Below are positions 15,087-36,393 of a stretch of DNA of 64,000 nt, piece by piece. A program made the translations under genes and the position numbers. Each line of letters opens with the position of its first letter. The first letter of the stretch is position 1. The DNA is taken from assembly GCA_030432595.1 (NCBI GenBank), contig JAUIGU010000020.1, positions 8,144-72,143 on the forward strand. Reading direction: 5' to 3'. The notes beneath the pieces were generated by a model, which searched no databases, was not told where the DNA came from, and worked only from the letters and a program-made list of their open reading frames with translations. The DNA comes from Phycisphaerae bacterium. Its GTDB lineage: Bacteria > Planctomycetota > Phycisphaerae > Phycisphaerales > Phycisphaeraceae.

Positions 15087-15166
15087 CGGGGAAGCGTAGC
15101 GCGGCGGGCGGGGTTGGGATCGCGTTGCGACCCACTGCGACCCCGGTCTGGCCTATCATCGACGCG

Positions 15167-16459
15167 GTGAACTTCCTGCTTGAAACCCTGCGACTGGGCG
15201 TGGCGAACCTGCGGCTGCACAAGCTGCGGTCGCTGCTCACGGCCCTGGGCATCATCATCGGCGTCGCCGCCGTCGTCGCCATCGCGGCCTACGGCGAGGG
15301 GGCCAAGCGCGCCGCCCTGGCCGACATCCTCGACCTGGGGGCCAACAACATCATCGTCCGCTCGGTCAAGCCCGTCGAGGTCGTCGACGACAGCCAGACC
15401 CAGAGCCGGGTCAGCGCGTACGGCCTGACCCGCCGCGACTACAACCGCATCGACGACACGGTCACCCCGGTCGAGGGCATTGTCCCGCTCAAGCGCGTCG
15501 GCGACCAGGTCATCCGCGGCAACGTCTCGATGGGCGTCGCCACCGTCATGGGCACCACGCCCGACATGCTCGAGGTCGCCAACCTCCGGGTCCGGCGCGG
15601 GCGCTACCTCGATGATTCCGACTTCTCCCCACCGGACAACGTGGCGGTCATCGGGGCCGGCATCGCTTCGCGTCTGTTCCCGCTGGCCGACCCGCTGGAC
15701 AGCACGTTCCGCATCGACGACACCACGTTCCGCGTCATCGGCGTGCTGCAGCCCGTGGGGCTGGCCGGCGGCGCGGGGTCGGCGCTGGTCGGCCGGGACC
15801 TGAACTTCGACGTGCATATCCCGCTGACCACCGCCCGCAGCCGGTTCGGCGACGTCCGCATGTCGCGCAGCTCCGGCAGCTTCAATCGCGAAGAGATCGA
15901 GATCTCGGAGCTTATCATCCGCACGCCCAGCGAGGACGCCGTGGTCAGCGTGGCCGGCCAGGTCGAGCGCGTGTTGTCGCTCGAACACGCCAAGAAGGGC
16001 GACGTCACCACCGTCGTCCCGTTGGAGTTGATCCAGCAGGCGGAGCGCGTCGAGTTCCGAAGCAACATGCTGATGGTCGTGATCGGCGGGCTGTCGCTGC
16101 TGGTCGGCGGCATCGGGATCATGAACATCATGCTCGCGTCGGTCACCGAGCGCACGCGCGAGATCGGCATCCGCCGGGCGCTGGGCGCGACGCGCCGGCA
16201 CGTCATCGCGCAGTTCCTCGTCGAGACCACGCTGCTGTCGTGCATCGGCGGGGCGATCGGCGTGGGGCTGGGGCTGTTCACCGCGATCGTGTTGGCGTGG
16301 CTGGCGCCCAGCCTCGAAGGCGTCGAGCCGCCGGCCGTCACGCCGACGCCCACCATCATCGCCTTCACCGTCGCCGCGGGCGTCGGGATCCTGTTCGGCC
16401 TGTACCCCGCGGTCAAGGCGGCCAAGCAGGACCCCATTGTCGCGCTGCGCCACGATTAA
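15167..16459 (+). CDS. MacB/FtsX-type ABC transporter permease (no ATPase partner nearby)
   Basis: N-terminal LRLHKLRSLLTALGIIIGVAAVV, a large periplasmic domain, and a C-terminal FtsX block RTREIGIRRALGATRRHVIAQFLVETTLLSCIGGAIGVGLG. GTG 15167 (VNFLLETL) is the likelier start. TTG 15125 is the alternative. Confidence 0.85.
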   Translation: MNFLLETLRLGVANLRLHKLRSLLTALGIIIGVAAVVAIAAYGEGAKRAALADILDLGANNIIVRSVKPVEVVDDSQTQSRVSAYGLTRRDYNRIDDTVTPVEGIVPLKRVGDQVIRGNVSMGVATVMGTTPDMLEVANLRVRRGRYLDDSDFSPPDNVAVIGAGIASRLFPLADPLDSTFRIDDTTFRVIGVLQPVGLAGGAGSALVGRDLNFDVHIPLTTARSRFGDVRMSRSSGSFNREEIEISELIIRTPSEDAVVSVAGQVERVLSLEHAKKGDVTTVVPLELIQQAERVEFRSNMLMVVIGGLSLLVGGIGIMNIMLASVTERTREIGIRRALGATRRHVIAQFLVETTLLSCIGGAIGVGLGLFTAIVLAWLAPSLEGVEPPAVTPTPTIIAFTVAAGVGILFGLYPAVKAAKQDPIVALRHD

Positions 16460-16533: not shown

Positions 16534-19317
16534 CTACGGCTTTGCCCACGCCGGCCACGCCGCGTCGCGATCCATCTGCGACAGGAGCGCGGCGGCCGTG
16601 GTGGTGACGAACTCGAAGTCCTGGCGGCAGTCGATAGCGCGTTGCAGATGCTCACGCGCTGCGTCACGACGGCCTTCGGCCAGGTGCACCGCGGCGATCA
16701 GGAGGTGTGCCGTCGCCGAAGTGAGCCGCGACGATGCGGCGACCCGCAGAAAATCGTCGGCCGTGATTTCGCCCGACATGAACCGCACCCGCGCCAGGGC
16801 CTGCGTGTCGGCGTCGTCCGGGGCGTCGATGTTTCGTACTGCTTCGTGTGCGCGGTCCAGATCGCCGGCCAGGCACCAGAGCAGGAATACACTCCGGCGC
16901 GAGCTGTGCGGGTCCATCGTGACGATGCGCCCGAAATCGAAACTGCGGATGACTTGTTCGCGTGACGAGGCCATCGCCGCCATCACAAACGAAGTGCAAA
17001 AGTCCGGGGTGCCGGTCTGGGTGTGGAGGCGGTAACGGGCGCAGGCGTCGAGGGCGTCGTCGAATCGTCCGGCGCGGTAGAGCGTCATCGCCAGGAAGCC
17101 GATGGTTTTGTCTTCGATCGCGTACCACTCCTGGATCGCATGGTCCAGGTCGCCGATGCGCTCGTAGTAGTAGGCGCGCCAGCGGCGGGCTTCGTAACTA
17201 TCCGGGTAAGCGGCAAGCCGCTCGGCCATCGCCCGGGCGCGGTCAAGGTGGGCGTCGCGGGAGCGCGACGAACCGACGGTGTCGTACCCGGCGGCGGCGG
17301 TGAGGTGGACGTGGAGCCGGCTGCTCAGGATGTACGCCGTCTCGGGGAGCAGGCTCGCGGCCAGTTCAAGGTCGTCCAACGCGCGCTGCGCGTGCGCGGG
17401 GTCGGTGTCGGCGTAAGCACGCTGCGACCGGATCGTGCCCCGGACCAGCCGCGCAACGATGTTCTGGCGGTCGATCTCGACGACGCGGTCCAGCAGCCGT
17501 TCGGCCTCGACCGGGTCGTGGTACGACTCCATCCGCCCCGCGAGGATCAGGTCTTCGATAGACGCAGGCCCGAGCTCGAACACCTCCGTCCGGTGTTCTC
17601 GGCTGAGTGTCCAGAGATCGACTCGGGCGTAGGCTTCGGCCAACAGTGCGTGCGCTGCGAGCGACCCGGGATCGCTGGCCAATACCTCCTTGAACGCCGC
17701 AACCGCCGACTGGAAGTCCGCGGACACCGTATCGACCTGGCCGCGCAGCAGGAGCAGGCGTTCCATTGAGGCTCCCAGGTGTTCGGCTTCCCGGATCGCG
17801 TCGCGCGCGGCGGCGAGGTCGCCCTGCATCGCCGCCAGCAAGGACCGCTCGAACAGGCGCTCCTGCTCGGTCTGTTGGGTGCGCACGAGGGTGTCCTGGG
17901 CGCGTTCGAGCCGCTGCTCGGCCCGGGCACGACCGCGCCCCTCCCGGTAGATGCCGTACGCCAGCCACGACGCGCTGACGCCCAGCACCAACGCGATCGA
18001 ACAGGCTGCGGACAACGCCTGATGTCGTCGCACGAACTTGATGCCGCGCGCGACCGGCCCGGCGCGGCGTGCGTTGATGGCGAACCGGTCGACGTAACGC
18101 CGCAGGTCGTCAGCGAAGGCGCCGGCGGATCCGTACCGCTCGGCGGGATCGATGGCCAACGCCTTGAGGCAGATCGTTTCGAGGTCGCGCGGCACGCGCG
18201 GGTTCAACCGGCGCGGCGACCTCGGCGGGTCGCGCCCGATCTGCGTGAGCACCTGCTGCCGGTTGCGCCCCGGGAACGGCGGCTGTAACGTCAGCAATTC
18301 GTAGAGCGTCGCGCCCAGCGCGTACACGTCCGTACGCACATCGATCTCCGCCGAACCGCCCGCGACCTGTTCGGGGGCCATGTAGTACGGCGTGCCGATG
18401 CACTCGCCGGTCTGCGTGATGCCGGGTTCGTCGAGGATCCGGGCGAGCCCGAAGTCTCCGAGGTGCAGAGTGCCGTCATTTGAGTAAAGAAGGTTCGATG
18501 GTTTGATGTCGCGGTGGATGACGCCGTGCTGGTGGGCGTAGTCGAGCCCGGACGCCACGTCCGCCATCTGCGTCGCCACGCGGTCGAAGTAGTTCTGAGA
18601 CAGATCGTCTAGAACCGTCTGCAAGGCGTCCGACGCCTCGCCGGGCACCTCCGGCTCGGCGCCGGGGTTTGACGCGGCGTCTAATTGTGCGGTGGTCGTG
18701 CGGTCATCGCTGACGTCGTCGTGGGTGCTGGCGGACCGCAACTCGGGCAGCGGTTGGGCGCGGAGTTGCCGGATGACCTGGCCGAGGGTGGGCCCGTCCG
18801 CGAGTTCCATGGCGTAGTACACGCAGCCCCGGGCTTGCCCGGACGCGAACACGCCGATCAGGTTCGTGTGGTGGAGCCGGGCGGCGGCCTCGATCTCGTG
18901 CTGAAACCGCTTGCGGGCCCGCGGCGAAAACTGGAGCTGAGCGGGCAGCACCTTGAGCGCGACGTCGCGTTGGAGCGAGAGCTGCCGGGCGCGGAAGACG
19001 CGCCCCATGCCGCCGGCCCCGATCAACGCCTCGACCTGGAAGTCACCGAGTGTGACCCCCGGGCCGGGGCTCGTGTACGCGTCCACTGACGCTTGAGCAG
19101 CGGGCATGTCTTGCGTCACGTCCTCACCCACGCCGTCATCCGGCAGGAACGTCGAGGCCTGGTCGTGCATTTCGAGCAGCGCCTGCACTTCGCCGAACAA
19201 CCCGTCGTCTTCTCCACACGCCCCGCGCACGAACGCCGCGCGTTCTTGAGGTTCCCGGTCCAGCGTCGCCTCGAATACCTCCAGCGCCCGGCGTGCGCGG
19301 TCAGTGTCCATGCTCAC
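16534..19317 (-). CDS. Transmembrane Ser/Thr protein kinase with C-terminal TPR-like sensor region (ECF-associated)
   Basis: Kinase motifs HRDIKPSNLL, GDFGLA and YMAPEQ. One TM helix (ALSAACSIALVLGVSASWLAYGIY) and about 470 aa of helical repeats. The start (GTG 19317 or ATG 19311) overlaps the 3' end of the ECF sigma gene. Confidence 0.9.
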   Translation of the reverse strand: MSMDTDRARRALEVFEATLDREPQERAAFVRGACGEDDGLFGEVQALLEMHDQASTFLPDDGVGEDVTQDMPAAQASVDAYTSPGPGVTLGDFQVEALIGAGGMGRVFRARQLSLQRDVALKVLPAQLQFSPRARKRFQHEIEAAARLHHTNLIGVFASGQARGCVYYAMELADGPTLGQVIRQLRAQPLPELRSASTHDDVSDDRTTTAQLDAASNPGAEPEVPGEASDALQTVLDDLSQNYFDRVATQMADVASGLDYAHQHGVIHRDIKPSNLLYSNDGTLHLGDFGLARILDEPGITQTGECIGTPYYMAPEQVAGGSAEIDVRTDVYALGATLYELLTLQPPFPGRNRQQVLTQIGRDPPRSPRRLNPRVPRDLETICLKALAIDPAERYGSAGAFADDLRRYVDRFAINARRAGPVARGIKFVRRHQALSAACSIALVLGVSASWLAYGIYREGRGRARAEQRLERAQDTLVRTQQTEQERLFERSLLAAMQGDLAAARDAIREAEHLGASMERLLLLRGQVDTVSADFQSAVAAFKEVLASDPGSLAAHALLAEAYARVDLWTLSREHRTEVFELGPASIEDLILAGRMESYHDPVEAERLLDRVVEIDRQNIVARLVRGTIRSQRAYADTDPAHAQRALDDLELAASLLPETAYILSSRLHVHLTAAAGYDTVGSSRSRDAHLDRARAMAERLAAYPDSYEARRWRAYYYERIGDLDHAIQEWYAIEDKTIGFLAMTLYRAGRFDDALDACARYRLHTQTGTPDFCTSFVMAAMASSREQVIRSFDFGRIVTMDPHSSRRSVFLLWCLAGDLDRAHEAVRNIDAPDDADTQALARVRFMSGEITADDFLRVAASSRLTSATAHLLIAAVHLAEGRRDAAREHLQRAIDCRQDFEFVTTTAAALLSQMDRDAAWPAWAKP

Positions 19318-19885
19318 CGTCCTCGGTCATCGCCCGCATCAGCCAGGTCCGCGCGACGTCCCAGTCGCGCTTCACCGTCGCCGGCGAGATCGACAGGGCC
19401 TGCGACACCTCGGCGACCGACAGCCCTCCGAAGTAACGCATCTCCACGACCTGCCCTTTGCGCGGGTCAATCTCGGTCAGGCCGTTGAGCGCTTCGTGCA
19501 GGTCGAGCAACTCGGGGCTCTGCTCTTCGCAGGCGATGAGTGCTTCGTCGAGCGAGAGCTTCTGCCGTCCGCCTCCGCGCTTGGTCCGGCCCCGGCCGCG
19601 GGCGTGATCGACCAGCAGGTTCCGCATGGCCCGCGCCGCCAACGCCATGAACTCCCCCTGGCTCTCGACGGTCACCGAGCTGTTTTCCAACAGCTTGACC
19701 GAGACCTCGTGGACCAAGGCCGTGGCGGTGAGCGTGTGGTCAGGCCGTTCGCTCCGCATCCGCGCGGTTGCGAGCCGGTGCAACTGGTCGTAGGTCGCCT
19801 GGAGCAGTTCGCTCCGCGCGTCCGAGTCGCCGGTGCGGGCACGGGATAGCAGGGCAGAGACATCCATCATCCGGCTCGTGAACAC
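19301..19885 (-). CDS. ECF sigma factor, Ser/Thr-kinase-associated type (ECF43 / TIGR02999-like)
   Basis: LLSRARTGDSDARSELLQATYDQLHRLA...TLTATALVHEVSVKL (sigma-2 region) and VVEMRYFGGLSVAEVSQALSISPATVKRDW (sigma-4 region). No anti-sigma gene is present; a kinase gene follows directly. Confidence 0.9.
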   Translation of the reverse strand: MFTSRMMDVSALLSRARTGDSDARSELLQATYDQLHRLATARMRSERPDHTLTATALVHEVSVKLLENSSVTVESQGEFMALAARAMRNLLVDHARGRGRTKRGGGRQKLSLDEALIACEEQSPELLDLHEALNGLTEIDPRKGQVVEMRYFGGLSVAEVSQALSISPATVKRDWDVARTWLMRAMTEDGEHGH

Positions 19886-20101
19886 GCCCGCGGGGTTTTA
19901 CGCAACATCAGTTTGATTCGAGAGTTATGGATGAACCGCGGCGCTCGACCAGGCCGTGAACATTTTAACTTCACGTTGGGAATCGAGCGATCTTCGTCTT
20001 TTTTCCTTTCTCGGGTGAGCCCCACGGCCTGCGGTTGTCGCTTTGGAGGTTGGCGGGCGTCCTCGTGGACGCCCGGGTGGAACCTTCAACGGAGAGACCC
20101 C

Positions 20102-22234
20102 ATGTTTCCCGCACCGCGGCGTCGGCGTTGTCGAACCCCTTGGAACCGGTTAGCCCGGGCGTGTGTCGCCGTGGGCATGATCCTCATGGCCGTCGGACCC
20201 GCGTCCCGGGCCCAGGACACCCACGAGTGGATCGACCCGACCGGCGGGGTTTACGGCAGCTTCAACAACTGGACGCCGATCGGCGTCCCCGCGCCGCTGG
20301 ACACCGCGCGCTTCAACCTCAACGCCGACTACCGCGTGTCCTTCATCCAGAACCGCCAGACGCGGCTGCTTCAGGTGCTCAACGGCGACGTCGTCTTCGA
20401 AGGTTCCGGCATCGACACCAGCGACCGCACCTTCACGGTGGAGGACCTGTTCATCAGCAACGCACCCGAAGTTGCGATCGAGCAGAACGCGTCGGGGAAG
20501 AGGCTCACGCTCGAGGTCACGGACGACGCGAGTGTCCGCGGGACGCTGACCGTGAGCCAGCACAACACGTTCGAGACCAACAGCGCCGTCGTGGACAGCG
20601 GGTTGTCGGCGAGCAGAGCGTCCGTCTACGTCATCGGTGGTCTTTCGAACACCGACCGCTCGTTCTGGGAGACGTCCACCCTCGAAGTCGGCAGCAACGA
20701 CAACGGCTCGGTCTGGCTGCTCGACGGCGGCATGCTGCAGGCCCACGGCCACACCACCGTGGGACGCGCCGCGGGCAGCGACGGCGAGATCGTCGTAACG
20801 GGCGTCGGCGGGCTCTACAGCTCGGACTTCCGCAGCGCGGGGGGGATCACGCTCGGCGAATCCGGCACCGCACGCCTCTCGGTGTTGAACGGCGCGTTCG
20901 CCTCGACGGCCGGGGCTGTGCTCGGGGACAGCGCGGGCGGGCGCGGGACGGTGACCATCGGCGGCACGTCGGGCAACATCGTCTCGCAATGGATCGCCGG
21001 GAACCTCAACGTCAAGCGGGGCGACGTCACCGTGAACCGCGGCGGATCGCTCCGGTCCGACGGCGCCACGATCGGTGATGCGGAAGTCAGCAGCCTCACG
21101 CTTTCGGGTACGGGTACCGCTGGGGTATTGCCGATCTGGAATGCCGAGGGCGAAACCACGATCGGAGACGGCGCAAACGCCAACCTCGAAGTGCAGGCCG
21201 GCGGGCGGGCCAACATGGAGCAGGTCTACGTCGGCCGCGACCCCGGCACGACCGGCCGCATCAACCTCTCGAGCTCGTTCACTGAGACCGAGTCCCGGCT
21301 GTTCGTGTCCAACAACCTCTACCTCGGCGGTACCGGCTTCGGCCAGGGCGGCGTCGGGCACCTCAACCTGATCGGCAACGCGTTCGCCCGCATCGACAAC
21401 CGCATCACGATCTTCGGCAGCAGCAGCGTCGTCCTGGGGCCCAGCAGCCAGCTCGTGGTCAGAGAGATCGAGAACGACAACGGCGGCTTCTTCGACTTCC
21501 TTCGCGGCGAGCTGAACGTGCGCACATATACCGGCGACCTGGTCAATCAAGAGGGCACGATCTCCCCGTACGCCGGGGGCTCGTTGTCTGGCGACGGCGC
21601 GGGGTTGATGACCATCGACGGCGACTACACCCAGCAGGCCGGCGCGACCTACGCCGTGGACATCGACGGCGAGATCTGCGGCATCGGCTACGACCACATC
21701 GACGTGACCGGCCAGGCGTTCCTGGGCGGCGACCTGGAGCTCACGCTGCTCGACGGGTTCGAGCCCGATGGCGACGACCTCTTCGACATCCTGTCCGCGA
21801 GCTCCCTCATCGGCAGCTTCGCCAACGCCGCGCCCGGTCAGCGCCTCGAGACCACCGACGGCATGGGTTCCTTCGTCGTCAACTACGGCAACACCAGCCC
21901 GTTCAACGCGAACCAGGTCATCCTCAGCGACTACCTCTTCCTCGGTGCCGACCTGCCCGGCGACTACAACCTGAACGGCCAGGTCGAGCAGGGTGACCTG
22001 GACCTGGTCCTCCAGAACTGGGGCCTGGACACGACCGCGTCGGGCATCCCTGCGGGTTGGCTCAACGACATCCCCGACGGCCTGATCGATCAGGCCGAGC
22101 TGGACGGCGTGCTCCTGAACTGGGGCGGCGCGGCCGCGCCGGACTTCACCGGCTCCGCCGTGCCCGAGCCCGCGTCCGTGGTGCTGCTCGCGCTGGGCGG
22201 TCTGGTGGCCCGGAGCCGGACGCAGCACCGCTGA
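20102..22234 (+). CDS. Large secreted beta-helix-like protein with C-terminal dockerin-like repeat and PEP-CTERM anchor (paralog A)
   Basis: Signal peptide MFPAPRRRRC...AVGPASRAQD. N-terminal W-x-x-x-G-G-x-Y-x-x-x-N-W motif and G/S/T/N-rich repeats. C-terminus: GDYNLNGQVEQGDLDLVLQNWG...AVPEPASVVLLALGGLVARSR. The start is chosen at the first ATG preceding the signal peptide. Confidence 0.8.
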   Translation: MFPAPRRRRCRTPWNRLARACVAVGMILMAVGPASRAQDTHEWIDPTGGVYGSFNNWTPIGVPAPLDTARFNLNADYRVSFIQNRQTRLLQVLNGDVVFEGSGIDTSDRTFTVEDLFISNAPEVAIEQNASGKRLTLEVTDDASVRGTLTVSQHNTFETNSAVVDSGLSASRASVYVIGGLSNTDRSFWETSTLEVGSNDNGSVWLLDGGMLQAHGHTTVGRAAGSDGEIVVTGVGGLYSSDFRSAGGITLGESGTARLSVLNGAFASTAGAVLGDSAGGRGTVTIGGTSGNIVSQWIAGNLNVKRGDVTVNRGGSLRSDGATIGDAEVSSLTLSGTGTAGVLPIWNAEGETTIGDGANANLEVQAGGRANMEQVYVGRDPGTTGRINLSSSFTETESRLFVSNNLYLGGTGFGQGGVGHLNLIGNAFARIDNRITIFGSSSVVLGPSSQLVVREIENDNGGFFDFLRGELNVRTYTGDLVNQEGTISPYAGGSLSGDGAGLMTIDGDYTQQAGATYAVDIDGEICGIGYDHIDVTGQAFLGGDLELTLLDGFEPDGDDLFDILSASSLIGSFANAAPGQRLETTDGMGSFVVNYGNTSPFNANQVILSDYLFLGADLPGDYNLNGQVEQGDLDLVLQNWGLDTTASGIPAGWLNDIPDGLIDQAELDGVLLNWGGAAAPDFTGSAVPEPASVVLLALGGLVARSRTQHR

Positions 22235-22338
22235 TTCGGAAATCCGTTGAGCCCATTCGTTTCGTTTTGTCGCCTTCGAGGTTGAGGGCCGCGGTTCGGT
22301 GGGTCCTCTGCAAACTGAACTTCAACCGGAGACTCGGC

Positions 22339-24495
22339 ATGTTCCTCACCCGTGCAGCGTTCCTGGCGTCTAAATCCATCACCGGAACCCTGGCGGCGGC
22401 GGCCGTGGTGATGAACGCTTCTCCAGGCCACGCCCAGAATGCGTCGTGGATCAACTCCCTCGGCGGCTTCTACGAAAACGCCAACAACTGGGTGCCCGGC
22501 GTCGTGCCGACGGCGACCAACGACGTCATCTTCGGCGTGTCCGGCGACTACTTCGTGGGCCTGTTCAACGACCAGACCGTGCACGACGTGCTCATCGCCA
22601 ACAACGTCGATCTGAATCTGAGCGTGGCAGGGCCTTCGGGCAACTCGCGTCTCTACACCCTCACCGGGCAGGCGACCATCGACAACAGCTCGCTCACCCT
22701 CGGCGGCACCGGCCCCGACGGGCGCGTCAACATGGAGGTCGGCGGCAAACTCGAGATGCAGGGCGGAAGATTCGATTTGCTCAACGGAGCCCAATTGACC
22801 TCGCAGACGAGTCTGACCAACTCGAACATTCTCGAGGGTGCGGGGAGCATCGACAGCACGATGATTATCCGCGGCACCGACGCCACCGGGCAGCCGTCGC
22901 GTTGGCAGTCGGGTGGGGGCACGAAGGTGGGAGACAGCGGCGGCCCGGCCGGCTTAGCCGTTCTCGAAGGCGGGCAGGTGTCCGCGGTGGGCTCCGTGTC
23001 CATTGGCGGTAATGTCATGGCCGACGGTTCGTCGCTCGAAGTCCGCGGAACATCGACGGGCGGCGCGCCTTCGAGTTTGACCAGCGGTTTCTTCCAACTC
23101 GGATTCTTGAGCGGGGGCGGCGGCCTCTCCCGGGCGACTGCACAGGTTGCTGACGGCGCAAACGTCATCACGGGCGGCGTGCAGGTGTTTCGAGACAGCA
23201 GGGTGATCGTCGATCATGAAGACGTGAACCGGAACGCGTCGCGTTTGGCGGCCAGCGGCTTTCAGGTTTTCGGAGGGTTTGTAGACGTTCTGAGGGGCGG
23301 ACTTATCACGAGCGACTCGCTCAGTCTTGACCGACTTGCCATCGCCAGAGTCGAGGGCGTCGGGGCGAACGGCCGGCCCTCGCGGTGGGACGTCAACGGC
23401 AACATCCGACTCGGCAGCAGCAACGGATTCGGCTCGCTGCTCATCGACAGCGGGCTCGTCACCAGCACGACCACGACGATCGGCGAGGGCACCGGCAGCA
23501 GCCTGCTCAGCGTCGAAGGGCTGTTCGGTGCCCAAGGCGTCTGGGAAAACACCGGCGACGTCTACGTCGGCGGCTCGACGACCGGGCCCGAGGCCGACGG
23601 GCTCTTGCGCCTGTTCGACGACGACGCCCGTGTCGCGATCGGCGGCACCCTCAAGGTCTGGAGCTCCGGCACGACCACCATGCACGGCGGCATCTTGCGC
23701 GCCGACACCATCGACCACACCCACGGCGGTACGTTCGATTTCAACGCAGGCACGCTCGGCGTCAACACCTTCAACGGCGACCTGCTAAACCAGGCCGGCA
23801 CGTTCGCGCCCGGCGTCGGCACCGATGTGGGTGCGTCCACCGTCGTCGGCGACTACACCCAGCAATCCAGCGGCAAGCTCGCCCTGGACATCGGTGGCAC
23901 CGGCCCCGGGTCGACGCATGACCTCGTCAGTATTACCGGCGACGCGCAGGTCGATGGCCTTTTGGAGCTGTCTCTGATCAACGGCTTCACGCCCGACGCG
24001 GCCGACACCTTCACCGTCTTCGCCGCCGGCAGCCTCATCGGCTTCTTCGACAACGTCTTCACCGGCCAGCGCCTCGACACCACGGATGGCGGCGGCTCCT
24101 TCGTGGTGAACTACGGCCTCGGCAGCGCGTTCAACGAAAACCGCATCATCCTCAGCGACTTCCTTGCCAACGTGTTGCTCGCCGGCGATTACAACGGCTC
24201 GGGTCAGGTCGAGCAGGGCGACCTGGACCTGGTGCTCCAGAACTGGGGCGTCGATACCGATGTGGCGGGCACCCCCGCCGGATGGAACCACGATCTGCCG
24301 TCCGGGCTGATCGAGCAGACCGAACTCGACGGCGTGCTCCAGAACTGGGGCAGCGCTTCGACGCCCGACTTCCGCGGGTCGGCGGTGCCCGAGCCTTCGT
24401 CGATGGTTGTTCTGGTTGTAGGCTTCTCGGCGTTGATCAACCGTCGCCGCCGAGTCGGGGGTCATGTCGTTTTGCTGCGATATCACTCCGTGTAA
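22339..24495 (+). CDS. Large secreted beta-helix-like protein with dockerin-like repeat and PEP-CTERM anchor (paralog B)
   Basis: GGAG lies 7 nt upstream of ATG 22339. Signal peptide MFLTRAAFLASKSITGTLAAAAVVMNASPGHAQ. It shares the N-terminal and GDYTQQ...FVVNYG modules with paralog A. C-terminus: GDYNGSGQVEQGDLDLVLQNWG...AVPEPSSMVVLVVGFSALINRRRR. Confidence 0.8.
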   Translation: MFLTRAAFLASKSITGTLAAAAVVMNASPGHAQNASWINSLGGFYENANNWVPGVVPTATNDVIFGVSGDYFVGLFNDQTVHDVLIANNVDLNLSVAGPSGNSRLYTLTGQATIDNSSLTLGGTGPDGRVNMEVGGKLEMQGGRFDLLNGAQLTSQTSLTNSNILEGAGSIDSTMIIRGTDATGQPSRWQSGGGTKVGDSGGPAGLAVLEGGQVSAVGSVSIGGNVMADGSSLEVRGTSTGGAPSSLTSGFFQLGFLSGGGGLSRATAQVADGANVITGGVQVFRDSRVIVDHEDVNRNASRLAASGFQVFGGFVDVLRGGLITSDSLSLDRLAIARVEGVGANGRPSRWDVNGNIRLGSSNGFGSLLIDSGLVTSTTTTIGEGTGSSLLSVEGLFGAQGVWENTGDVYVGGSTTGPEADGLLRLFDDDARVAIGGTLKVWSSGTTTMHGGILRADTIDHTHGGTFDFNAGTLGVNTFNGDLLNQAGTFAPGVGTDVGASTVVGDYTQQSSGKLALDIGGTGPGSTHDLVSITGDAQVDGLLELSLINGFTPDAADTFTVFAAGSLIGFFDNVFTGQRLDTTDGGGSFVVNYGLGSAFNENRIILSDFLANVLLAGDYNGSGQVEQGDLDLVLQNWGVDTDVAGTPAGWNHDLPSGLIEQTELDGVLQNWGSASTPDFRGSAVPEPSSMVVLVVGFSALINRRRRVGGHVVLLRYHSV

Positions 24496-24533
24496 GGCTG
24501 ATCGATGCACTATGTCGGCGCGGGGGGATGGAC

Positions 24534-27134
24534 TTACGGCACGTTGATGACGGTTTCACCCTCGGCCGCGAGGTCGATGCCCGGGCCGCCGTCGAGGAAG
24601 TCCACGCCGTCGCCGCCGTTGAGAACGTCGTTGTCGGCCTCGCCGAACAGGTCGTCGTCGCCGTCGCCGCCCAGGATCGTGTCGTTGCCCGCGCCGCCGC
24701 GGATCTCGTCGTTGCCGTCGCCGCCGGTGAGGACGTCGTCGCCCAGGCCGCCGTTGATCTCGAAGGTGATCAGGCCGGCGAGGCCGGTGCTGCCGGTGAC
24801 GGTGTCGTTGCCGTCCAGGGTGTTGACCTCGAGCGTCTCGGTGGTGCCGATGTCGAGGGTGAAGGCGTCGAGGTTGGTGCGTTGAAGCGCGACGCGGATA
24901 CCGTTGGGGTTGACGAAGATGTCGTCGCCTTCGGTGTTCGAGCCGTTGACCTGGACGGTGTCATTGCCGGTGCCGCCTTCGAGCAGGTCGGACCCGTCGC
25001 CGTGGTTCCAGACGAGGGTGTCGTCGTCGGACTGCCCGAGCACGACGTCGTTGCCGGGGCCGCCGATGAGGGTGTCGTTGCCGGCGCCGCCGCGGAGAAC
25101 GTCGTCGCCGTCGCTGCCGACGAGCAGGTCGTTGCCCTCACCGCCATCGAGGTCGAGGTTGATCCGCCCGGCGAGTCCGGGGTTCCCGCCGATCAAGTCC
25201 GCGCCGCCCTGGCCGTTGATGTCGAGGTTGTCAACGGCGGCCAGGTTGAGGACGGTGGTGGTCACGAGCGTGTGCTTCACCTGAACACGGTGACGCACTA
25301 CATCGACGGTGATGACGTCGCCGGCGTTGTTGCTGCCGTTGACCTGGACGGTGTTGATGCCGAAGCCGCCGTACAGGTTGTCCGCGCCGTCGCCGAAGTT
25401 CCAGATCATCAGGTCGTGGCCGTGGCCGCCGCCCACGCTGTCGTTGCCGCGCCCGCCGAGGAGGGTGTCGTTGCCGTGGCCTCCGTCGAGGCTGTCGTCG
25501 CCGTCGCCGCCCATGATGAAGTCGTTGTCGTCGCCGCCGAAGAGGCGCAGGTCGATCATGTCGGCCAGTCCGTTGGACGCAACGATCGTGTCCCTGCCGC
25601 CGTTGCCGTGGACGTCAAGCATTTCGGTCGTGCCGATGTCCATGGTGTATGCCCAGTTGTTGGTGCGTTCGAGGCGGACGCGGTCGCCGTTGGGTTGGAT
25701 GGTGATGTCGTCGCCGATGGCGTCGGACCCGTGGACCACGACGGTGTCGCGGTCGGCACCGCCTTCAAGGAAGTCCGAGCCGTCACCGTTGTGCACAATC
25801 ATTCGGTCGTTGCCGGATTCGCCGATTTTGATGTCGTTCCCGCGGTGGCCGATGAGCGTGTCGTTGCCGGCGCCGCCGCGGAGGACGTCGACGCCGTCGC
25901 CGCCGATGAGCAGGTCGTTGCCCTCGCCGCCGTCGAGGTCGAGGTCGATCAGCCCGTCGAGGCCGACGGAGCCGCGCAGGGTGTCGTTTCCGCCCTGGCC
26001 GTTGACGTCGAGGTTTTCGGTGGTGCCGATGTCGAGGGTGAACAGCCCGAGGTTGTCGCGGTCGAAGCGGACGCGGTTGCCGTTGGGCGAAATGGTGAAC
26101 TCGTCGCCGTCGGCGTTGCTGCCGTTGACCTGGACAACGTCGTTGTCGTCGCCGCCTTCCATCAGGTCGGAGCCGTCGCCGTGATTCCAGACGAACAGGT
26201 CGTGGCCCTGCTCGCCGAGTTGTATGTCGTTGCCTCGTCCGCCGATCAGGGTGTCCTGGCCGGCGCCGCCGCGAAGTACATCGACGCCGTCGCCGCCGAT
26301 GAGCAGGTCGTTGCCCTCGCCGCCGTCGAAGTCGAGCTCGATCAGCCCGCCGAGCCCGACGGAGCCGGCGATGATGTCGCTGCCGCCCTGGCCGTTGACG
26401 TCGAGGTCTTCGACGCCGCCGATGTCGAGGGTGAACAGGCCCAGGTTGTTGCGCTGGAAGCGGACGCGGTCGCCGTTGGGGTCGACGGAGAAGTCGTCGC
26501 CGGCCCCGTTGGCACCGTTGACCTGAACGATGTCGCGGTCGTCGCCGCCTTCGAGGACGTCGGAGCCGTCGCCGTTGTTCCAGATCATCAGGTCCACGCC
26601 GCTCTGGCCCTGGACGGAGTCGTTGCCGCGGTCGCCGAGGATGGTGTCGTTGCCGGAGCCGCCGAAGAGCCGGTCGACGTTGTCGCCGCCGCGGATGAAG
26701 TCGTTGTCCGCGCCGCCGAGGATGGTGTCCTCGCCCGCGCCGCCGATGAGGGTGTCGTTGCCGTCGCCGCCGAGCAGGGTGGCCTGGGGCAGCGCGCCCT
26801 GCGCCTCGTTGAGGACGATGTTGTCGTTGCCGTCGAGGCCCGAGGCGAGGATGACGGTGGTGTTGGCGACCGTGGGCACGCCGCCGGTGATCGCGACCGC
26901 GCCGTCGTTGACGAGGATGTTGCCGTTGGCGGCCCGGCTGATCTCGATGTTGTTGTCCAGGTTGTCGCCGACGACCTGGAGCAGCCCGCCGGCCGGCGAG
27001 AAGGTCGCGCTGACGGAGAACAACTCGCGCCGTTCGAGGCCTTCGAGCTGTGGCCCTGCCGCGGGCAGGCGGTCGAGCAACTCGGCGGTGGCGGGGCGGC
27101 ATCGGCGGGACAGGCGGCGGAACAGGGCGTGCAT
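24534..27134 (-). CDS. Giant hemolysin-type (RTX) calcium-binding repeat protein with five tandem modules of about 131 aa
   Basis: Dozens of GGxGxD nonapeptides (GGDGNDTLIGGAGEDTILGG...). The modules start VQVNGSN..GD.F...PNG.RV. and recur every 390-393 nt. Start taken at MHALFRRL (ATG 27134), with LEGLERRELFSV near the N-terminus. Confidence 0.85.
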   Translation of the reverse strand: MHALFRRLSRRCRPATAELLDRLPAAGPQLEGLERRELFSVSATFSPAGGLLQVVGDNLDNNIEISRAANGNILVNDGAVAITGGVPTVANTTVILASGLDGNDNIVLNEAQGALPQATLLGGDGNDTLIGGAGEDTILGGADNDFIRGGDNVDRLFGGSGNDTILGDRGNDSVQGQSGVDLMIWNNGDGSDVLEGGDDRDIVQVNGANGAGDDFSVDPNGDRVRFQRNNLGLFTLDIGGVEDLDVNGQGGSDIIAGSVGLGGLIELDFDGGEGNDLLIGGDGVDVLRGGAGQDTLIGGRGNDIQLGEQGHDLFVWNHGDGSDLMEGGDDNDVVQVNGSNADGDEFTISPNGNRVRFDRDNLGLFTLDIGTTENLDVNGQGGNDTLRGSVGLDGLIDLDLDGGEGNDLLIGGDGVDVLRGGAGNDTLIGHRGNDIKIGESGNDRMIVHNGDGSDFLEGGADRDTVVVHGSDAIGDDITIQPNGDRVRLERTNNWAYTMDIGTTEMLDVHGNGGRDTIVASNGLADMIDLRLFGGDDNDFIMGGDGDDSLDGGHGNDTLLGGRGNDSVGGGHGHDLMIWNFGDGADNLYGGFGINTVQVNGSNNAGDVITVDVVRHRVQVKHTLVTTTVLNLAAVDNLDINGQGGADLIGGNPGLAGRINLDLDGGEGNDLLVGSDGDDVLRGGAGNDTLIGGPGNDVVLGQSDDDTLVWNHGDGSDLLEGGTGNDTVQVNGSNTEGDDIFVNPNGIRVALQRTNLDAFTLDIGTTETLEVNTLDGNDTVTGSTGLAGLITFEINGGLGDDVLTGGDGNDEIRGGAGNDTILGGDGDDDLFGEADNDVLNGGDGVDFLDGGPGIDLAAEGETVINVP

Positions 27135-27283
27135 AGCGGGCCTCGGCAGGTGTTGAACGTTTGAAAGAGCCGGCGGTTGGGCGAGGGAGGGCACCCGACG
27201 CGCCGCCCCGGGTCATGGAGCCATGCGACGCTCTGTGGTGCCGGACCCATTAGGAATGTCCCCAGGTTTTTGACCCCTTTGCG

Positions 27284-27898
27284 GTGTACGGGGACATCGA
27301 ATCCCCGCGATTGGCCTTAAACTGCGGCATCGTGTCCGACCCGGGCGACATCACGCGGATCCTGCAGGCCTCGGAACCGGGCGACGGGTCGGCCGTGGAC
27401 CGGCTGCTGCCCGCCGTTTACGAAGAACTCAAACAGATGGCCTCGGCCAAGCTCGCGCGCGAGTCTGGCCGGGTGTTCCAGCCGACCGCGCTGGTCCACG
27501 AGGCCTACCTCCGCCTGGTCGGGCCCAGCCAGCGCGGGTTCGAGAACCGGGGCCACTTTTTTGCGGCTGCGGCCGAAGCGATGCGCCGGGTCCTCATCGA
27601 CGACGCCCGCTCGCGCTCCCGGCTTAAGCGCGGCGGCGGCGCGTCACGTGTCGATCTCGACACCGGCATGATCACCATCGACGACGACCCCCACGAGCTG
27701 CTCGCCATCGACGAGGCCCTGACGGCGCTCGAATCCCAGGACGCGCGGAAAGCCAGCCTCGTCAAGCTGCGGTTCTTCGGCGGGCTGACCCAGGCCGAGG
27801 CCGCCGGGCTGCTGGGCGTCTCGCGCTCCACCGCCGACAACGACTGGGCCTACGCCCGGGCCTGGCTGCACCAGGCCATCCAGGGCAACGTTTCCTGA
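27284..27898 (+). CDS. ECF sigma factor, Ser/Thr-kinase-associated type (ECF43 / TIGR02999-like), second copy
   Basis: DITRILQASEPGDGSAVDRLLPAVYEELKQMASAKLA...PTALVHEAYLRLV and LVKLRFFGGLTQAEAAGLLGVSRSTADNDW. The start is either GTG 27284 or GTG 27332 (VSDPGD). Confidence 0.9.
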   Translation: MYGDIESPRLALNCGIVSDPGDITRILQASEPGDGSAVDRLLPAVYEELKQMASAKLARESGRVFQPTALVHEAYLRLVGPSQRGFENRGHFFAAAAEAMRRVLIDDARSRSRLKRGGGASRVDLDTGMITIDDDPHELLAIDEALTALESQDARKASLVKLRFFGGLTQAEAAGLLGVSRSTADNDWAYARAWLHQAIQGNVS

Positions 27899-27995
27899 GT
27901 CGGGCGGGCCGCGTTTCGTTCAATCCAATCAAAGTGCTTGTGCGCCACGCTTGCCGGGGTGACGATGGGTGCCCCTGCGTCACGAGACACTCTCC

Positions 27996-30900
27996 ATGCC
28001 GGCATCGAAGTCGAACGAAGAGCAGATCTTCCTCGCCGCCCTCGGTGAGCCCGATCCCGACCGCCGCGCCCGGCAGGTCGCCGAGGCTTGCAGCGACAAC
28101 CAAGAGCTGCGCGATCGAATCGAAGCCCTCCTGCAGTCGCATTTCGAGGCGAAACACTTCCTCGAAACCCCAGCGCTGGTGAAGGACGGTCGGCTCAGCC
28201 GGACGCTCGGCCTGCACGTCGGCCTAGAGGTCGGGGCGGTCGTCATGGGGCGTTACCGCATCGACGGCGTCCTCGGCGAGGGCGGGATGGCGGTGGTGTA
28301 CGCGGCGGAACAGGTCTCCCCCGTTCAACGCCCCGTCGCGCTCAAGGTCATCAAGCCCGGACTGGACACCAAGCAGGTCGTTACGCGTTTCGAGGCCGAG
28401 CGACAGGCACTGGCGCTGATGAACCACCCGCACATCGCCAGCGTGCTCGACGGCGGGACCACTGATTCGGGCCACCCGTTCTTTGTGATGGACCGTGTCG
28501 AGGGCCCGCCGATCACGACGTACTGTGACGAGCACGCCCTGCCGATCGACCGGCGGATCGAGCTGTTCCTCGATGTCTGCCGCGCCGTCTGGCACGCGCA
28601 TCAGAAAGGCATCATCCACCGCGACCTCAAGCCGTCGAACGTGTTGATCGCCACCCAGGGGCAGCTCGCGGCACCCGTGGTCATCGACTTCGGCATCGCC
28701 AAAGCCACCGAGCGTCGGCTCACCGAGCACACGCTCGAGACCGGCGGCGCCGTGTTCCTGGGCACGCCGGAGTACATGAGCCCCGAACAGGCCGACGCCA
28801 GCAAAGACCTTGACACGCGCACCGACATCTTCGCGCTGGGCGCGTTGCTGCGCCAGCTTCTCACGGGCTCGACGCACCTGGACCCCCGCACGCTGCGCGA
28901 GATGCCCTACGACCGCATGCTCGTGACGGTGCGTGAGCAGGAGCCGTCGCGCCCGAGCACGCGCCTCCACACGTTGGGTGACGACGCACTCGAGGTCGCG
29001 CGCTCCCGACGCACCACCCCGGGCCGGCTCAAAGCGCGGCTCCGCGGCGACCTCGACTGGATCGTCGTCAAAGCCATGCAGAACGACCGCACCCGGCGCT
29101 ACGGCGGCGTCGGCGTGCTCATCGAAGACCTCGAACGCTACCTGCGCGGCGACTCCGTGTCGGCCGGTCCGCCCAACCCGATCCACCGCATCCGCAGCAC
29201 GTTCCGACGCCACCGCCCGACCTTCATCTCCGCGGGTTTGATCCTGCTCGCGCTGCTCGTGGGGCTGGGCGTCGCGATCCGCAAAGCCGCCGACGAGCGC
29301 GACGCCCGACTCCGCGCCGACGCGCTGCGTCTTGAAACCCAGGACGCGCTCGACCGGTCTGAGTCGCTCCGCCAGCTCCTGGCCCGCATGGTCACCCTCG
29401 CCGAGCCGCGTCCGGGCAAGTCCGCCGACTACACCGTTGCCGAGATGCTGTCCGACTTCGGCGGGGACATCGACACCCTCGCCGCGGACCGCCCGGACGT
29501 CGCGGCCGAGCTCCACACGCTCGTCGGCAGCGCTTTGCGCACGCTGGACCTTCGCGAGCAGGCCGCCGTGCATTTCGAGCTCGCGCTCGATCTTTACCGA
29601 ACCCTCGACGACACGCCGCCCGCCACGCGCAGCGACGCGATCCTCGACCTGGTCGAGATGCGCCAGGCCTACGCGCAGAGCGACGTGCAACACTGGGTCG
29701 AGCTGACCAACGAGGCGCTCGGCTTGAGCTACACCCCCGACGGGCAGCCGGGGTTGACCACGTCCCGCGCGATGGAAGTCATGGGCTGGATCCACCACGC
29801 CGGCCTCAACGACGCCGAGGCGCTGCGCTGGTTCCACGAAAGCCTAGACGTCGCTGAAAAACTGAACAACGACCGCCAGGCCTCGCGTCTGCACTCCGCA
29901 CTGGCGACTGCGTACTACTCGGCCGGCCGCAACGAGCGCTCGATCCACCACGCCCGCACCGCGATGCAACTCGTCGAGTCGCTCTACGACCCGCTCAGCC
30001 ACGAACACCTCCGGGCCCGCTCGATGCTGGCCAGCAGCCTGGCGCGGTCCGGCGATGCGGCCGAGGGCTGCGCGATGCTCATCGACGTCCTCGAAGCCCG
30101 CCACGGCCTCGGCCTGCCGACCTCCGTTTGGTCCGTGCTGTCGCTGCAGCGCGGCGTGTTGCGCCTGCAGCGGGAGGCAGACGTGGAACACGCCGCCGTC
30201 TACGCCGAGCATGCCGCCCGCTGGTTTGATCTTGTACCCGACGCGGATCGGTCTGCGGAGTGGGGCATCATCGCGCGGGACCAGGCGACATATCACTTCA
30301 TGTTGGGGCAGGATCAGGCCGGGTGTTCCCGGATCGCGTACACCGTCAAGCTGTTCGCGCAGTCCGAACGGTTCATGACGGTCGCGGTGGCGAACGCGGC
30401 ATTCCTCGCGATCGTCGGTGACGAGACCGGGAGCCGGCCCCAAGCCGTGCGGGCGTTCGACCACCTGGCGCAGCGCTGTGAAGAGTTCGGGTTGGCCGGT
30501 TTCGGCAAAGCGGTCGAACACCTGCGGAACGACCTGCTCGGCAGCCATGCTCCGTCATACTCTCCCGCCCCTTTCACCGACCTCGAAGCCGAGAGCATCG
30601 ACCAGTGGCAATCCGTCATCGAGTCGATGGTCGCGCTGCGTTTCGACGGTCGGCTCGGTCAGCGGAATCGGCCGCGCATGCTCGAGGCGGTGTGCGTTTT
30701 GGCTGAACCTTTGATCGAGGCCAGGCCCGACGATCCCCGGCCACACCTGTTGCTGGCGGTGGGGCGGTACAACCTCGGGCATTACGCCGACGCCTTGGTC
30801 ATTCTGGACCGCGCGGACGTGCTGGTCGAACCCGAGCCGACGCCGGACACGCTCGTGCTCAAGACCCACCGCATCGCCGCGCTGTCCGCCACCGGCCGAG

Positions 30901-31046
30901 TCGACGAAGCGCACACGCAATACGCCGCGCTCAAGCCCTGGCTCGACCGGCCGGACATCGCGCTCCCCGAACTGGCGATGCGGGCCCTGGACGACTATCG
31001 GAAACGGGTTGACGAGGTGTCGCCACGTCACGACGCTCCCCCATGA
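27996..31046 (+). CDS. Transmembrane Ser/Thr protein kinase with C-terminal TPR-like sensor region (ECF-associated), second copy
   Basis: Kinase motifs HRDLKPSNVL, IDFGIA and YMSPEQ. TM helix FISAGLILLALLVGLGVAI and about 560 aa of helical repeats. The N-terminal leader of about 55 aa ends in a conserved ALLxxH motif, as in the first kinase. Confidence 0.9.
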   Translation: MPASKSNEEQIFLAALGEPDPDRRARQVAEACSDNQELRDRIEALLQSHFEAKHFLETPALVKDGRLSRTLGLHVGLEVGAVVMGRYRIDGVLGEGGMAVVYAAEQVSPVQRPVALKVIKPGLDTKQVVTRFEAERQALALMNHPHIASVLDGGTTDSGHPFFVMDRVEGPPITTYCDEHALPIDRRIELFLDVCRAVWHAHQKGIIHRDLKPSNVLIATQGQLAAPVVIDFGIAKATERRLTEHTLETGGAVFLGTPEYMSPEQADASKDLDTRTDIFALGALLRQLLTGSTHLDPRTLREMPYDRMLVTVREQEPSRPSTRLHTLGDDALEVARSRRTTPGRLKARLRGDLDWIVVKAMQNDRTRRYGGVGVLIEDLERYLRGDSVSAGPPNPIHRIRSTFRRHRPTFISAGLILLALLVGLGVAIRKAADERDARLRADALRLETQDALDRSESLRQLLARMVTLAEPRPGKSADYTVAEMLSDFGGDIDTLAADRPDVAAELHTLVGSALRTLDLREQAAVHFELALDLYRTLDDTPPATRSDAILDLVEMRQAYAQSDVQHWVELTNEALGLSYTPDGQPGLTTSRAMEVMGWIHHAGLNDAEALRWFHESLDVAEKLNNDRQASRLHSALATAYYSAGRNERSIHHARTAMQLVESLYDPLSHEHLRARSMLASSLARSGDAAEGCAMLIDVLEARHGLGLPTSVWSVLSLQRGVLRLQREADVEHAAVYAEHAARWFDLVPDADRSAEWGIIARDQATYHFMLGQDQAGCSRIAYTVKLFAQSERFMTVAVANAAFLAIVGDETGSRPQAVRAFDHLAQRCEEFGLAGFGKAVEHLRNDLLGSHAPSYSPAPFTDLEAESIDQWQSVIESMVALRFDGRLGQRNRPRMLEAVCVLAEPLIEARPDDPRPHLLLAVGRYNLGHYADALVILDRADVLVEPEPTPDTLVLKTHRIAALSATGRVDEAHTQYAALKPWLDRPDIALPELAMRALDDYRKRVDEVSPRHDAPP

Positions 31047-31851: not shown

Positions 31852-31892
31852 GTCCGGCGGCTCGACATCAACTCTCGTGAACAGGAGCACCC

Positions 31893-32594: not shown

Positions 32595-32612
32595 GTGAAA
32601 TGGAGCCATGGC

Positions 32613-36391: not shown

Positions 36392-36393
36392 CC

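Follow-up and report, generated by a model that had tools for sequence, protein, structure and literature searches.

In a 64,000-nt stretch of the genome of a Phycisphaerae bacterium (GenBank assembly GCA_030432595.1, contig JAUIGU010000020.1, positions 8,144 to 72,143 of the forward strand; GC content about 67%), hereafter the window, two modules were analysed, each consisting of an extracytoplasmic function (ECF) sigma factor and a transmembrane Hanks-type Ser/Thr kinase. They lie in mirror image at the two ends of a 14.5-kb island. On the left, S1 and its kinase K1 are divergent from two paralogous genes for PEP-CTERM proteins, PA and PB; on the right, S2 and its kinase K2 are divergent from a gene for an RTX repeat protein (Table 1). 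All genes were found where a sequence-only reading of the window had placed them, and when the island proteins were compared with the window by tblastn, these two sigma/kinase pairs were the only ones returned. We consider it probable, with some reserve, that these are two independent ECF43-type modules, of which S1 drives PA and PB and S2 presumably its own divergent neighbours. The left module carries the argument, with a linkage to PA/PB-family genes that recurs in five relatives and a promoter-like motif shared by these loci.

According to published work on this group (PMC8999054, PMC8103513, PMC13147305), ECF43 sigma factors are linked to Ser/Thr kinases, have no anti-sigma factor and carry uncharged residues instead of the DAED/DxxD motif in sigma region 2.2 (sigma2.2); EcfP reads STTA here and the family consensus QTTA, the third-position Thr being phosphorylated. 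Both sigma factors of the island score well above the curated cutoffs of PF07638 (21.1 bits) and TIGR02999 (126.15 bits), S1 with 180.1 bits (E 5e-53) and 192.3 bits and S2 with 180.8 bits (E 3e-53) and 198.8 bits, respectively, and they are 40% identical to each other. The acidic motif is replaced by TATA-LVHE in S1 and QPTA-LVHE in S2, Thr being the third residue of both. The L[VIL]HE anchor is present in 117 of 120 S2 homologs, nearly all of which (116/117) have Thr at motif position 3, and the KRGGG linker region contains Ser/Thr in both S1 and S2.

No anti-sigma gene was found in the island. S1 and K1 overlap by 11 nt when K1 begins at its ATG (8 nt in the orthologous pairs), which suggests translational coupling. 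The remaining gaps measure 216, 107, 38, about 150 and 97 nt, the last one separating S2 from K2. With a largest unassigned gap of 216 nt, there is therefore no space for a hidden anti-sigma gene, and its absence, as read earlier from the sequence, is borne out. Based on the family scores, the sigma2.2 signature, the adjacent kinases and the missing anti-sigma gene, the ECF43-type assignment of S1 and S2 suggested in the sequence-only reading is supported.

Five independent relatives with long flanks were available for the left module, namely L001 (GCA_028285385.1), L002/L003 (GCA_038745355.1), L165, L166 and L167. The S1 orthologs (in L001, L002, L008 and L165-L167) are 55-75% identical and the K1 orthologs 45-55%. 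In all five relatives, PA/PB-family genes are divergent from the S1/K1 module, and this linkage is still kept in L166 and L167, where the kinase gene precedes the sigma gene. In L165-L167, the PA/PB family is represented by one to three separate genes of 665-711 amino acids (aa), and L166 holds a 51% identical PA ortholog and L167 a 54% identical PB ortholog.

Alignment of the intergenic regions left a sole conserved feature: TGAGCC, 14 unconserved bases and T..CG(C/T) (closest loci, TGTCGCTTT), written below as TGAGCC-N17-CG(C/T). The exact form TGAGCC-N14-TGTCGC is found twice in the window, compared to 0.03 matches expected, and a relaxed form matches the same two sites only. In every orthologous locus (L001, L002, L165, L166, L167), the distance from the motif to the first divergent gene downstream of it is 52-78 nt, and in L166 two further PA-like genes are preceded by the motif as well. 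A matrix built from nine sites scores 23.7-41 on those sites and at best 18.5 elsewhere in 1.93 Mb of other loci; these scores are partly circular for the nine training sites, the negative space being the informative part. Scanned with this matrix, the window gave no site beyond those before PA and PB. The motif consists of a 6-nt -35-like box, a spacer of fixed length and unconserved sequence and a CG(C/T) -10-like core, on the target strand and at promoter distance. The SigW promoter, TGAAAC-N16-CGTA, resembles it. We regard TGAGCC-N17-CG(C/T) as a likely candidate for an ECF-type promoter of S1, and the comparison across relatives is good evidence for a regulon of PA and PB that is linked to S1/K1. 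The link between the left pair and its divergent genes, as put forward earlier, thus stands on the synteny in five relatives and on a motif which in the window precedes only PA and PB.

Table 1. Features of the sigma/kinase island (positions in the window; strand given as + or -, with a dot where none applies)
Feature	Position	Strand	Basis and remarks
K1, transmembrane Hanks-type Ser/Thr kinase	16534-19311 (ATG start, 925 aa) or to 19317	-	Pkinase and TPR matches
K1 leader, about 55-58 aa, predicted three helices	19138-19311	-	Alignment; leader HMM, E 2e-21; AF2
S1, ECF43-type sigma factor	19301-19885	-	PF07638, TIGR02999
Codon of S1 Thr55 (third position of TATA-LVHE), predicted phospho-acceptor	19721-19723	-	Equivalent to the third-position Thr of EcfP STTA and EcfK QATE (PMC8999054, PMC13147305)
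Promoter-like motif TGAGCC-N14-TGTCGC before PA	20016-20041	+	61 nt upstream of PA ATG
PA, PEP-CTERM protein, 710 aa	20102-22234	+	Translation
Second TGAGCC-N14-TGTCGC copy, before PB	22248-22273	+	69 nt upstream of PB ATG
PB, PEP-CTERM paralog of PA, 717 aa	22342-24495	+	TIGR02595, comparison with PA
RTX calcium-binding repeat protein, 866 aa	24534-27134	-	PF00353; convergent with PB, divergent from S2
Conserved intergenic block CATGCGAC...TCCCCAGG between RTX gene and S2	27222-27266	.	Only alignable stretch among window, L004 and L168
S2, ECF43-type sigma factor, 204 aa	27284-27898	+	PF07638, TIGR02999; possible alternative GTG start at 27332
Codon of S2 Thr68 (third position of QPTA-LVHE), predicted phospho-acceptor	27485-27487	+	Motif alignment of S2 homologs
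K2, transmembrane Hanks-type kinase, 1016 aa	27996-31046	+	Pkinase and TPR matches
K2 leader, three-helix N-terminal module	27996-28169	+	Alignment, leader HMM, 9eed_A alignment, AF2

For the right module, two full-length K2 orthologs were found, and the S2 orthologs are 76% and 72% identical. The contig of GCA_028285385.1 that carries the K1 ortholog P0002 also has the K2 ortholog P0123, and the same mirror layout recurs there: K1'/S1' on one strand, a 1410-aa PA/PB fusion, 762- and 764-aa genes on the opposite strand, S2' and K2' (primes denote the genes of the relative). No homologs of the flanking genes of the window were found in the contig flanks of GCA_028285385.1. As the mirror layout recurs with unrelated flanks, it is the island as a whole that is conserved. 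The second K2 ortholog locus (P0243) was recovered on a 1.6-kb contig only, and P0249 sits in a different gene context. As to whether relatives keep the arrangement, the full mirror layout was retrieved in GCA_028285385.1, but the RTX gene is not kept beside S2/K2. Its position is held by two PEP-CTERM proteins of 762-764 aa, which share with PA/PB only an N-terminal W..G...W...NW motif and the C-terminal third.

The upstream regions of the window, L004 and L168 share CATGCG(A/T)C followed by T(C/T)CCC(C/T)A(G/A)GG, about 116 nt from the divergent ATG in the window and L004, and the conserved block at this place (Table 1) may be a regulatory region. When the right-module upstream regions of the window and L004 were searched for exact bipartite words in common, only chance matches were obtained. 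When read by eye, the relatives show TAAGCA-N16-CGC there, with TAAGCG-N15-CGC before the 762-aa gene in L004, and the window counterpart is a degenerate TAATGG-N16-CGTCGC. No conserved element was found in the S2-K2 gap (92-97 nt) of the window and the relatives, and scans for sigma-70 promoter and terminator consensus sequences gave nothing informative. S2/K2 may control the RTX gene, but these comparisons support this only weakly. The proposal that each pair controls the genes divergent from it is therefore supported on the left, by synteny and motif, but not on the right, where the RTX gene is not conserved and no convincing motif was retrieved. In the same way, only the left half of the suggested two-regulon surface-remodelling island of 14.5 kb is evidenced, surface remodelling itself being deduced from the protein types. 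Downstream of K2' in L004, a site with one additional spacer base (TGAGCC-N15-TGTCGC) falls at 18205-18231 (-), within the 5' region of a PEP-CTERM gene called at 710 aa; the called start may be too early, or the gene could be a further member of the S1' regulon.

Neighbourhood does not need to imply regulation. The two pairs might control genes elsewhere, with PA, PB and RTX remaining adjacent through inheritance of the block as a unit. That unrelated PEP-CTERM genes take the place of RTX in the one relative that has the right module would fit this explanation, as would the lack of a clear S2-type motif and the characterised ECF43 regulons, the type VI secretion system (T6SS) and polymyxin resistance, which are not simply one divergent gene (PMC8999054). 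However, the left linkage survives 45-55% kinase identity, a change in gene order, fusion and splitting of the targets and a complete loss of flank synteny, and it comes with a motif that is specific to the target genes. Inheritance as a block without regulation is considered unlikely.

Both kinases begin with the same leader, the first 55-58 residues, with the consensus ..F..AL.....ER...L..ACG.D..LR..VE.LL.AH..A..FL. The conserved leader of about 55 aa that had been noticed before the kinase domain is real and shared by K1 and K2, based on the alignment and a leader hidden Markov model (HMM). The AlphaFold2 (AF2) model, built from a 60-sequence alignment, has helices at residues 3-16, 21-31 and 36-57, with a predicted local distance difference test (pLDDT) value of about 88 in the core. 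None of the Pfam and NCBIfam models matches the leader, and a Foldseek search of its AF2 model against the PDB gave no significant or informative relative (best E 2.6). The best solved relative of K2 is 9eed_A (E 2.4e-53, compared to 5e-35 for PknB), with K2 residues 9-60 aligned to residues 13-60 of this chain inside one match, leader included. The entry is labelled just "Kinase domain protein"; we infer that it is Xanthomonas citri PknS(1-364), the kinase of the ECF43 sigma factor EcfK, because the 364-residue length fits the crystallised construct in PMC13147305. The N-terminal region of PknS is disordered in the crystal and predicted to be helical (PMC13147305).

Searching 1.84 billion cluster representatives with the leader profile retrieved 68,119 proteins at E <=1e-3 and 23,769 at E <=1e-10, the match being located at the N-terminus in nearly all of them. 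Some kinases have 2-10 tandem leader copies ahead of the kinase domain (P0361 with 1156 aa, P0364, P0362, P0365 and P0373), and these arrays suggest an autonomous, multivalent protein-binding module. Two samples show the company that the leader keeps. The first one, about 84 planctomycete loci, includes those from a contig scan with the K1-family alignment, in which generic kinase catalytic motifs were picked and the matches listed were mostly unrelated planctomycete kinases. Every strong ECF43 sigma gene in these loci directly precedes a leader-bearing open reading frame (ORF), the leader-positive ECF43 loci being the window (twice), L001, L002/L003, L004, L005, L008, L035 and L052, and none of the approximately 75 leaderless anchor kinases has an adjacent ECF43 sigma factor. 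The second one is a metagenome scan with S1, which returned generic ECF43 sigma factors (40-52% identical) and not S1 orthologs, and was reused as a co-occurrence set. Here, a leader ORF was found in 54 of the 68 loci with enough downstream sequence, starting from 28 nt before to 297 nt after the end of the sigma gene.

In approximately 23 of 80 planctomycete kinase loci, a leaderless kinase follows another ECF sigma factor (e.g., L031 3696-4355, L030 7718-8512 and L027 8989-9660). Such sigma factors reach 23-36 bits on PF07638 (eight scanned), and the acidic sigma2.2 motif Dx[SAD]D-V[LI]Q[ED] is present in 9 of the 12 examined. They probably belong to other Ser/Thr kinase-linked planctomycete ECF groups and may have a different mechanism. 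In the samples taken, the xxTA motif of sigma2.2 and the adjacency of the two genes go along with the leader, which accompanies ECF43-type sigma factors only.

Instead of simple substrate docking, the leader might be an anti-sigma-like domain that holds the sigma factor inactive at the membrane until phosphorylation frees it. Its topology is that of a classical anti-sigma factor, namely a small bundle of helices on the cytoplasmic side, at the N-terminus of a membrane protein with a single TM pass whose gene lies beside the sigma gene, and the strict co-occurrence with ECF43 sigma factors and the tandem arrays of up to 10 copies would agree with such a function. Still, no anti-sigma structure is among the Foldseek matches, the HxxxCxxC motif is absent from the leader, and the Pfam matches at E up to 10 are noise, zf-HC2 being hit at E 0.09 on one two-copy sequence only; an anti-sigma-like fold of the leader is not supported by these searches. 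Moreover, ECF43 sigma factors are intrinsically inactive (PMC8999054), so that sequestration would be needless. This makes sequestration by the leader quite improbable.

As for the remainder of the kinases, Pkinase domains were identified in K1 (E 5e-43) and K2 (E 1e-33), with the catalytic motifs HRDIKPSN/DFG and HRDLKPSN/DFG, respectively. Each has one predicted transmembrane (TM) helix (residues 434-456 in K1 and 415-442 in K2, ORF numbering) followed by TPR matches. The earlier description of a single TM helix with a helical-repeat region of 470-560 aa is correct for both in its elements and for K1 in its length (about 470 aa of extracytoplasmic TPR-like region), but in K2 this region measures about 580 aa. 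K1 and K2 are 29% identical, and only across the leader, kinase domain and juxtamembrane part; their sensor halves do not align with each other. More than 70 full-length K1 orthologs were retrieved, those with a named source being Planctomycetota/Pirellulales. The K1 kinase domain is closest to PknB. Between hinge and helix E, it carries an acidic, Ser/Thr-rich insert of about 60 aa (residues ~182-246; 18570-18770, -), of which the edges are conserved in the K1 family (LRxxPxPEL ... NYFDxVA) and which is absent from PknB and K2.

The sequences show the family membership, the sigma2.2 signature, the synteny, the motif and the co-occurrence of leader and ECF43 sigma factors. The best-supported model, deduced from the characterised family members, takes the published ECF43 mechanism once for each module, and from phosphorylation to physiological output they would act as follows. 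Each single-pass kinase would sense an envelope or external cue via its own extracytoplasmic TPR-like domain, and K1 and K2 would read different cues because their sensors differ. With the three-helix cytoplasmic leader recruiting the co-encoded sigma factor, the kinase would phosphorylate its sigma2.2 Thr (S1 Thr55, S2 Thr68). This phospho-Thr would supply the negative charge of the ordinary DAED/DxxD motif, allowing the sigma factor to bind the RNA polymerase core. Active S1 would then start transcription at TGAGCC-N17-CG(C/T) before PA and PB, and the beta-helix-like products would be exported and sorted by the PEP-CTERM/exosortase route. S2 would presumably drive its own divergent genes, RTX here and two PEP-CTERM proteins in the relative, although on weaker evidence.

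Several points weigh against this scheme. Many ECF sigma factors autoregulate, and no motif copy was found upstream of S1 on the S1 strand in exact, relaxed or matrix scans, by which S1 autoregulation via the motif was rejected; a sigma factor switched on by phosphorylation need not autoregulate. On the right side, no RTX homolog was found in the related island, and a search of the window for TAAGC-N15-17-CGC gave no relevant site; a robust S2-type motif was not obtained. A role of the leader in sigma recognition is suggested by co-occurrence alone, and the motif could belong to a different regulator that is linked to the PA/PB genes. EcfK of X. citri can do without its sigma2.2 Thr, and sites in the linker contribute as well (PMC13147305); a switch consisting of a single Thr may therefore be too simple. 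That the motif is real but read by another ECF sigma factor or a DNA-binding regulator, with S1/K1 acting on other promoters, is very unlikely: although its tie to S1 is comparative, it is absent upstream of S1 and a bipartite site with fixed spacing could be an operator, both its architecture and its position 52-78 nt upstream on the target strand fit an ECF promoter, among the loci examined it is present strictly together with S1 orthologs, and no other regulator gene is conserved across these loci.

PA and PB are 36% identical over their full length. Each has a signal peptide, two QGDLDLVLQNWG-type dockerin-like motifs and a tail of VPEP, hydrophobic and basic parts. PB matches TIGR02595 (PEP_CTERM) with 18.3 bits (cutoff 16), and PA ends with VPEPASVVLLALGGLVARSRTQHR, which has no model match and was read as a PEP-CTERM tail directly from the sequence. 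No Pfam match was found for the body of either protein, and the TIGR04393 repeat, associated with PEP-CTERM proteins and the type V secretion system (T5SS), scores 22 bits on PA, below its cutoff of 23. The AF2 model of PA, made from a shallow alignment, is all-beta with a mean pLDDT of 60 and a core of 70-92 over approximately residues 110-480. Its top 16 Foldseek matches are all autotransporter passenger beta-helices, but with E values of at least 0.011 and template modelling scores of at most 0.27. An adhesin-like cell-surface beta-helix would be a reasonable reading of this model. No exosortase was found among the 20 flanking genes of the window that were scanned.

In L001 (4990-9222) and L002 (4145-8257), the PA-like and PB-like halves are fused in one ORF of 1370-1410 aa, with a dockerin-like remnant at the fusion junction in L001 (7072-7347). 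A conserved PEP-CTERM gene of 272-279 aa is the first behind the motif in L002 (8364-9185), L165 (8373-9212) and L166 (8920-9738); its product is about 60% identical between loci, has no Pfam match and is absent from the window, L001 and L167. Three more PEP-CTERM proteins are encoded in the window, all on the - strand: a GH13 alpha-amylase with pullulanase X25 (39650-41902), an X25-repeat protein (41929-43548) and a protein of 272 aa (43674-44492). The alpha-amylase and the X25-repeat protein share the QGDLDLVLQNWG C-terminal module with PA/PB (50-69% identity over about 80-130 aa). The TGAGCC motif was found upstream of none of these three genes.

The RTX protein matches PF00353 (E 6.5e-59) in 10 stretches and contains 24 GGxGxD matches. 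It consists of five tandem units with an exact period of 131 aa (VQVNGSN at residues 203, 334, 465, 596 and 727), each composed of nonapeptide repeats and a spacer module of about 70 aa. Such an exact period implies recent internal duplication or homogenisation. No N-terminal hydrophobic signal was found in this protein, of which the N-terminus (27015-27134, -) reads MHALFRRLSRR...LEGLERRELFS. The N-terminal motif LExRxL(F/L)(S/A) is a recurrent one among repeat proteins of planctomycetes. No type I secretion genes (ATP-binding cassette (ABC) exporter, membrane fusion protein or outer membrane protein) were retrieved in the island or the scanned flanks, the permease at 15125-16459 not being a type I ABC exporter. 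The description of the three proteins as giant is too strong, as they measure only 710, 717 and 866 aa, and secretion of RTX was deduced from its family alone.

The permease just mentioned is a MacB/FtsX-type ABC permease encoded on the + strand, convergent with K1 and ending 75 nt from the 3' end of K1. Directly 3' of K2, a signalling cluster (31213-38927, +) encodes an HTH_17+REC response regulator, a REC protein, an H-NOX (HNOB) haem-NO-binding protein, two histidine kinases (one hybrid), an HDOD protein and a REC plus HD-GYP-like (HD_5) protein. From its gene content, this cluster looks like a two-component module linked to nitric oxide (NO)/H-NOX, possibly with a role for cyclic di-GMP.

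Pairs of an ECF43 sigma factor and a kinase are found in large numbers in Planctomycetota, Acidobacteriota and other phyla of environmental bacteria. The studied examples are from Vibrio, Xanthomonas and Hyphomonas only, and no planctomycete regulon is reported in the accessible literature. For the locus described here, a concrete and testable prediction can be made of one sigma factor acting at one promoter consensus on two genes, an arrangement shared by several relatives. The leader is useful for annotation, since it appears to separate ECF43-partner kinases from many other Hanks kinases, and it is a candidate determinant of kinase-sigma recognition. Tentatively, and with somewhat more doubt than confidence, the leader could be seen as the dedicated sigma-recruiting module of a very large "sigma-kinase" class, in which the adjacent ECF sigma factor is switched on by sigma2.2 phosphorylation. 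The island would then be a two-channel switch by which envelope cues choose between PEP-CTERM beta-helix and RTX proteins, with TGAGCC-N17-CG(C/T) as the S1 consensus. If true, this would be the first promoter consensus proposed for a planctomycete ECF43 sigma factor in the accessible literature.

Among the known systems, EcfK/PknS of X. citri, which controls the T6SS, likewise has adjacent sigma and kinase genes and an ECF43 sigma2.2 motif with the conserved Thr (PMC13147305). PknS, too, has a helical N-terminal region ahead of its kinase domain, a single TM helix and a large domain outside the cytoplasm (PMC13147305), in agreement with the alignment of K2 to 9eed_A from residue 9 onwards. 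The sensor domains are different, however, and the neighbouring candidate targets are PEP-CTERM/RTX proteins here instead of the T6SS. EcfK keeps one acidic residue (QATE), whereas S1 (TATA) and S2 (QPTA) have none, and the two modules described here form an inward-facing mirror pair. EcfP/PknT of Vibrio parahaemolyticus shares the change from DAED to an uncharged xxTA with Thr in third position, the lack of an anti-sigma factor and the co-encoded kinase (PMC8999054, PMC8103513). It differs in host phylum, sensor and presumed regulon, since EcfP controls polymyxin resistance, and the present modules are known from sequence alone.

The Ser/Thr kinase-linked planctomycete groups ECF59, ECF61, ECF62 and ECF217 are alike in that the sigma factor is encoded directly upstream of a Ser/Thr kinase. 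The control sigma factors resembling them, which were not assigned to the named groups, differ by their 23-36 bits on PF07638, the acidic motif in 9 of 12 and kinases without leader, and S1 and S2 do not belong to this type. Classical pairs such as RpoE/RseA and SigW/RsiW also have a two-domain sigma factor, a bipartite -35/-10 promoter with a CGT-like -10 element and an adjacent membrane partner; here, in contrast, no anti-sigma gene is present, S1 and S2 lack the acidic motif for core binding, and their partners are kinases. Compared to these systems, what is added here is a predicted promoter and regulon for a planctomycete ECF43 sigma factor, together with a widespread leader that appears to mark ECF43-partner kinases; otherwise, judging from the genes, the system is of the same kind as EcfP/PknT and EcfK/PknS, in another phylum.

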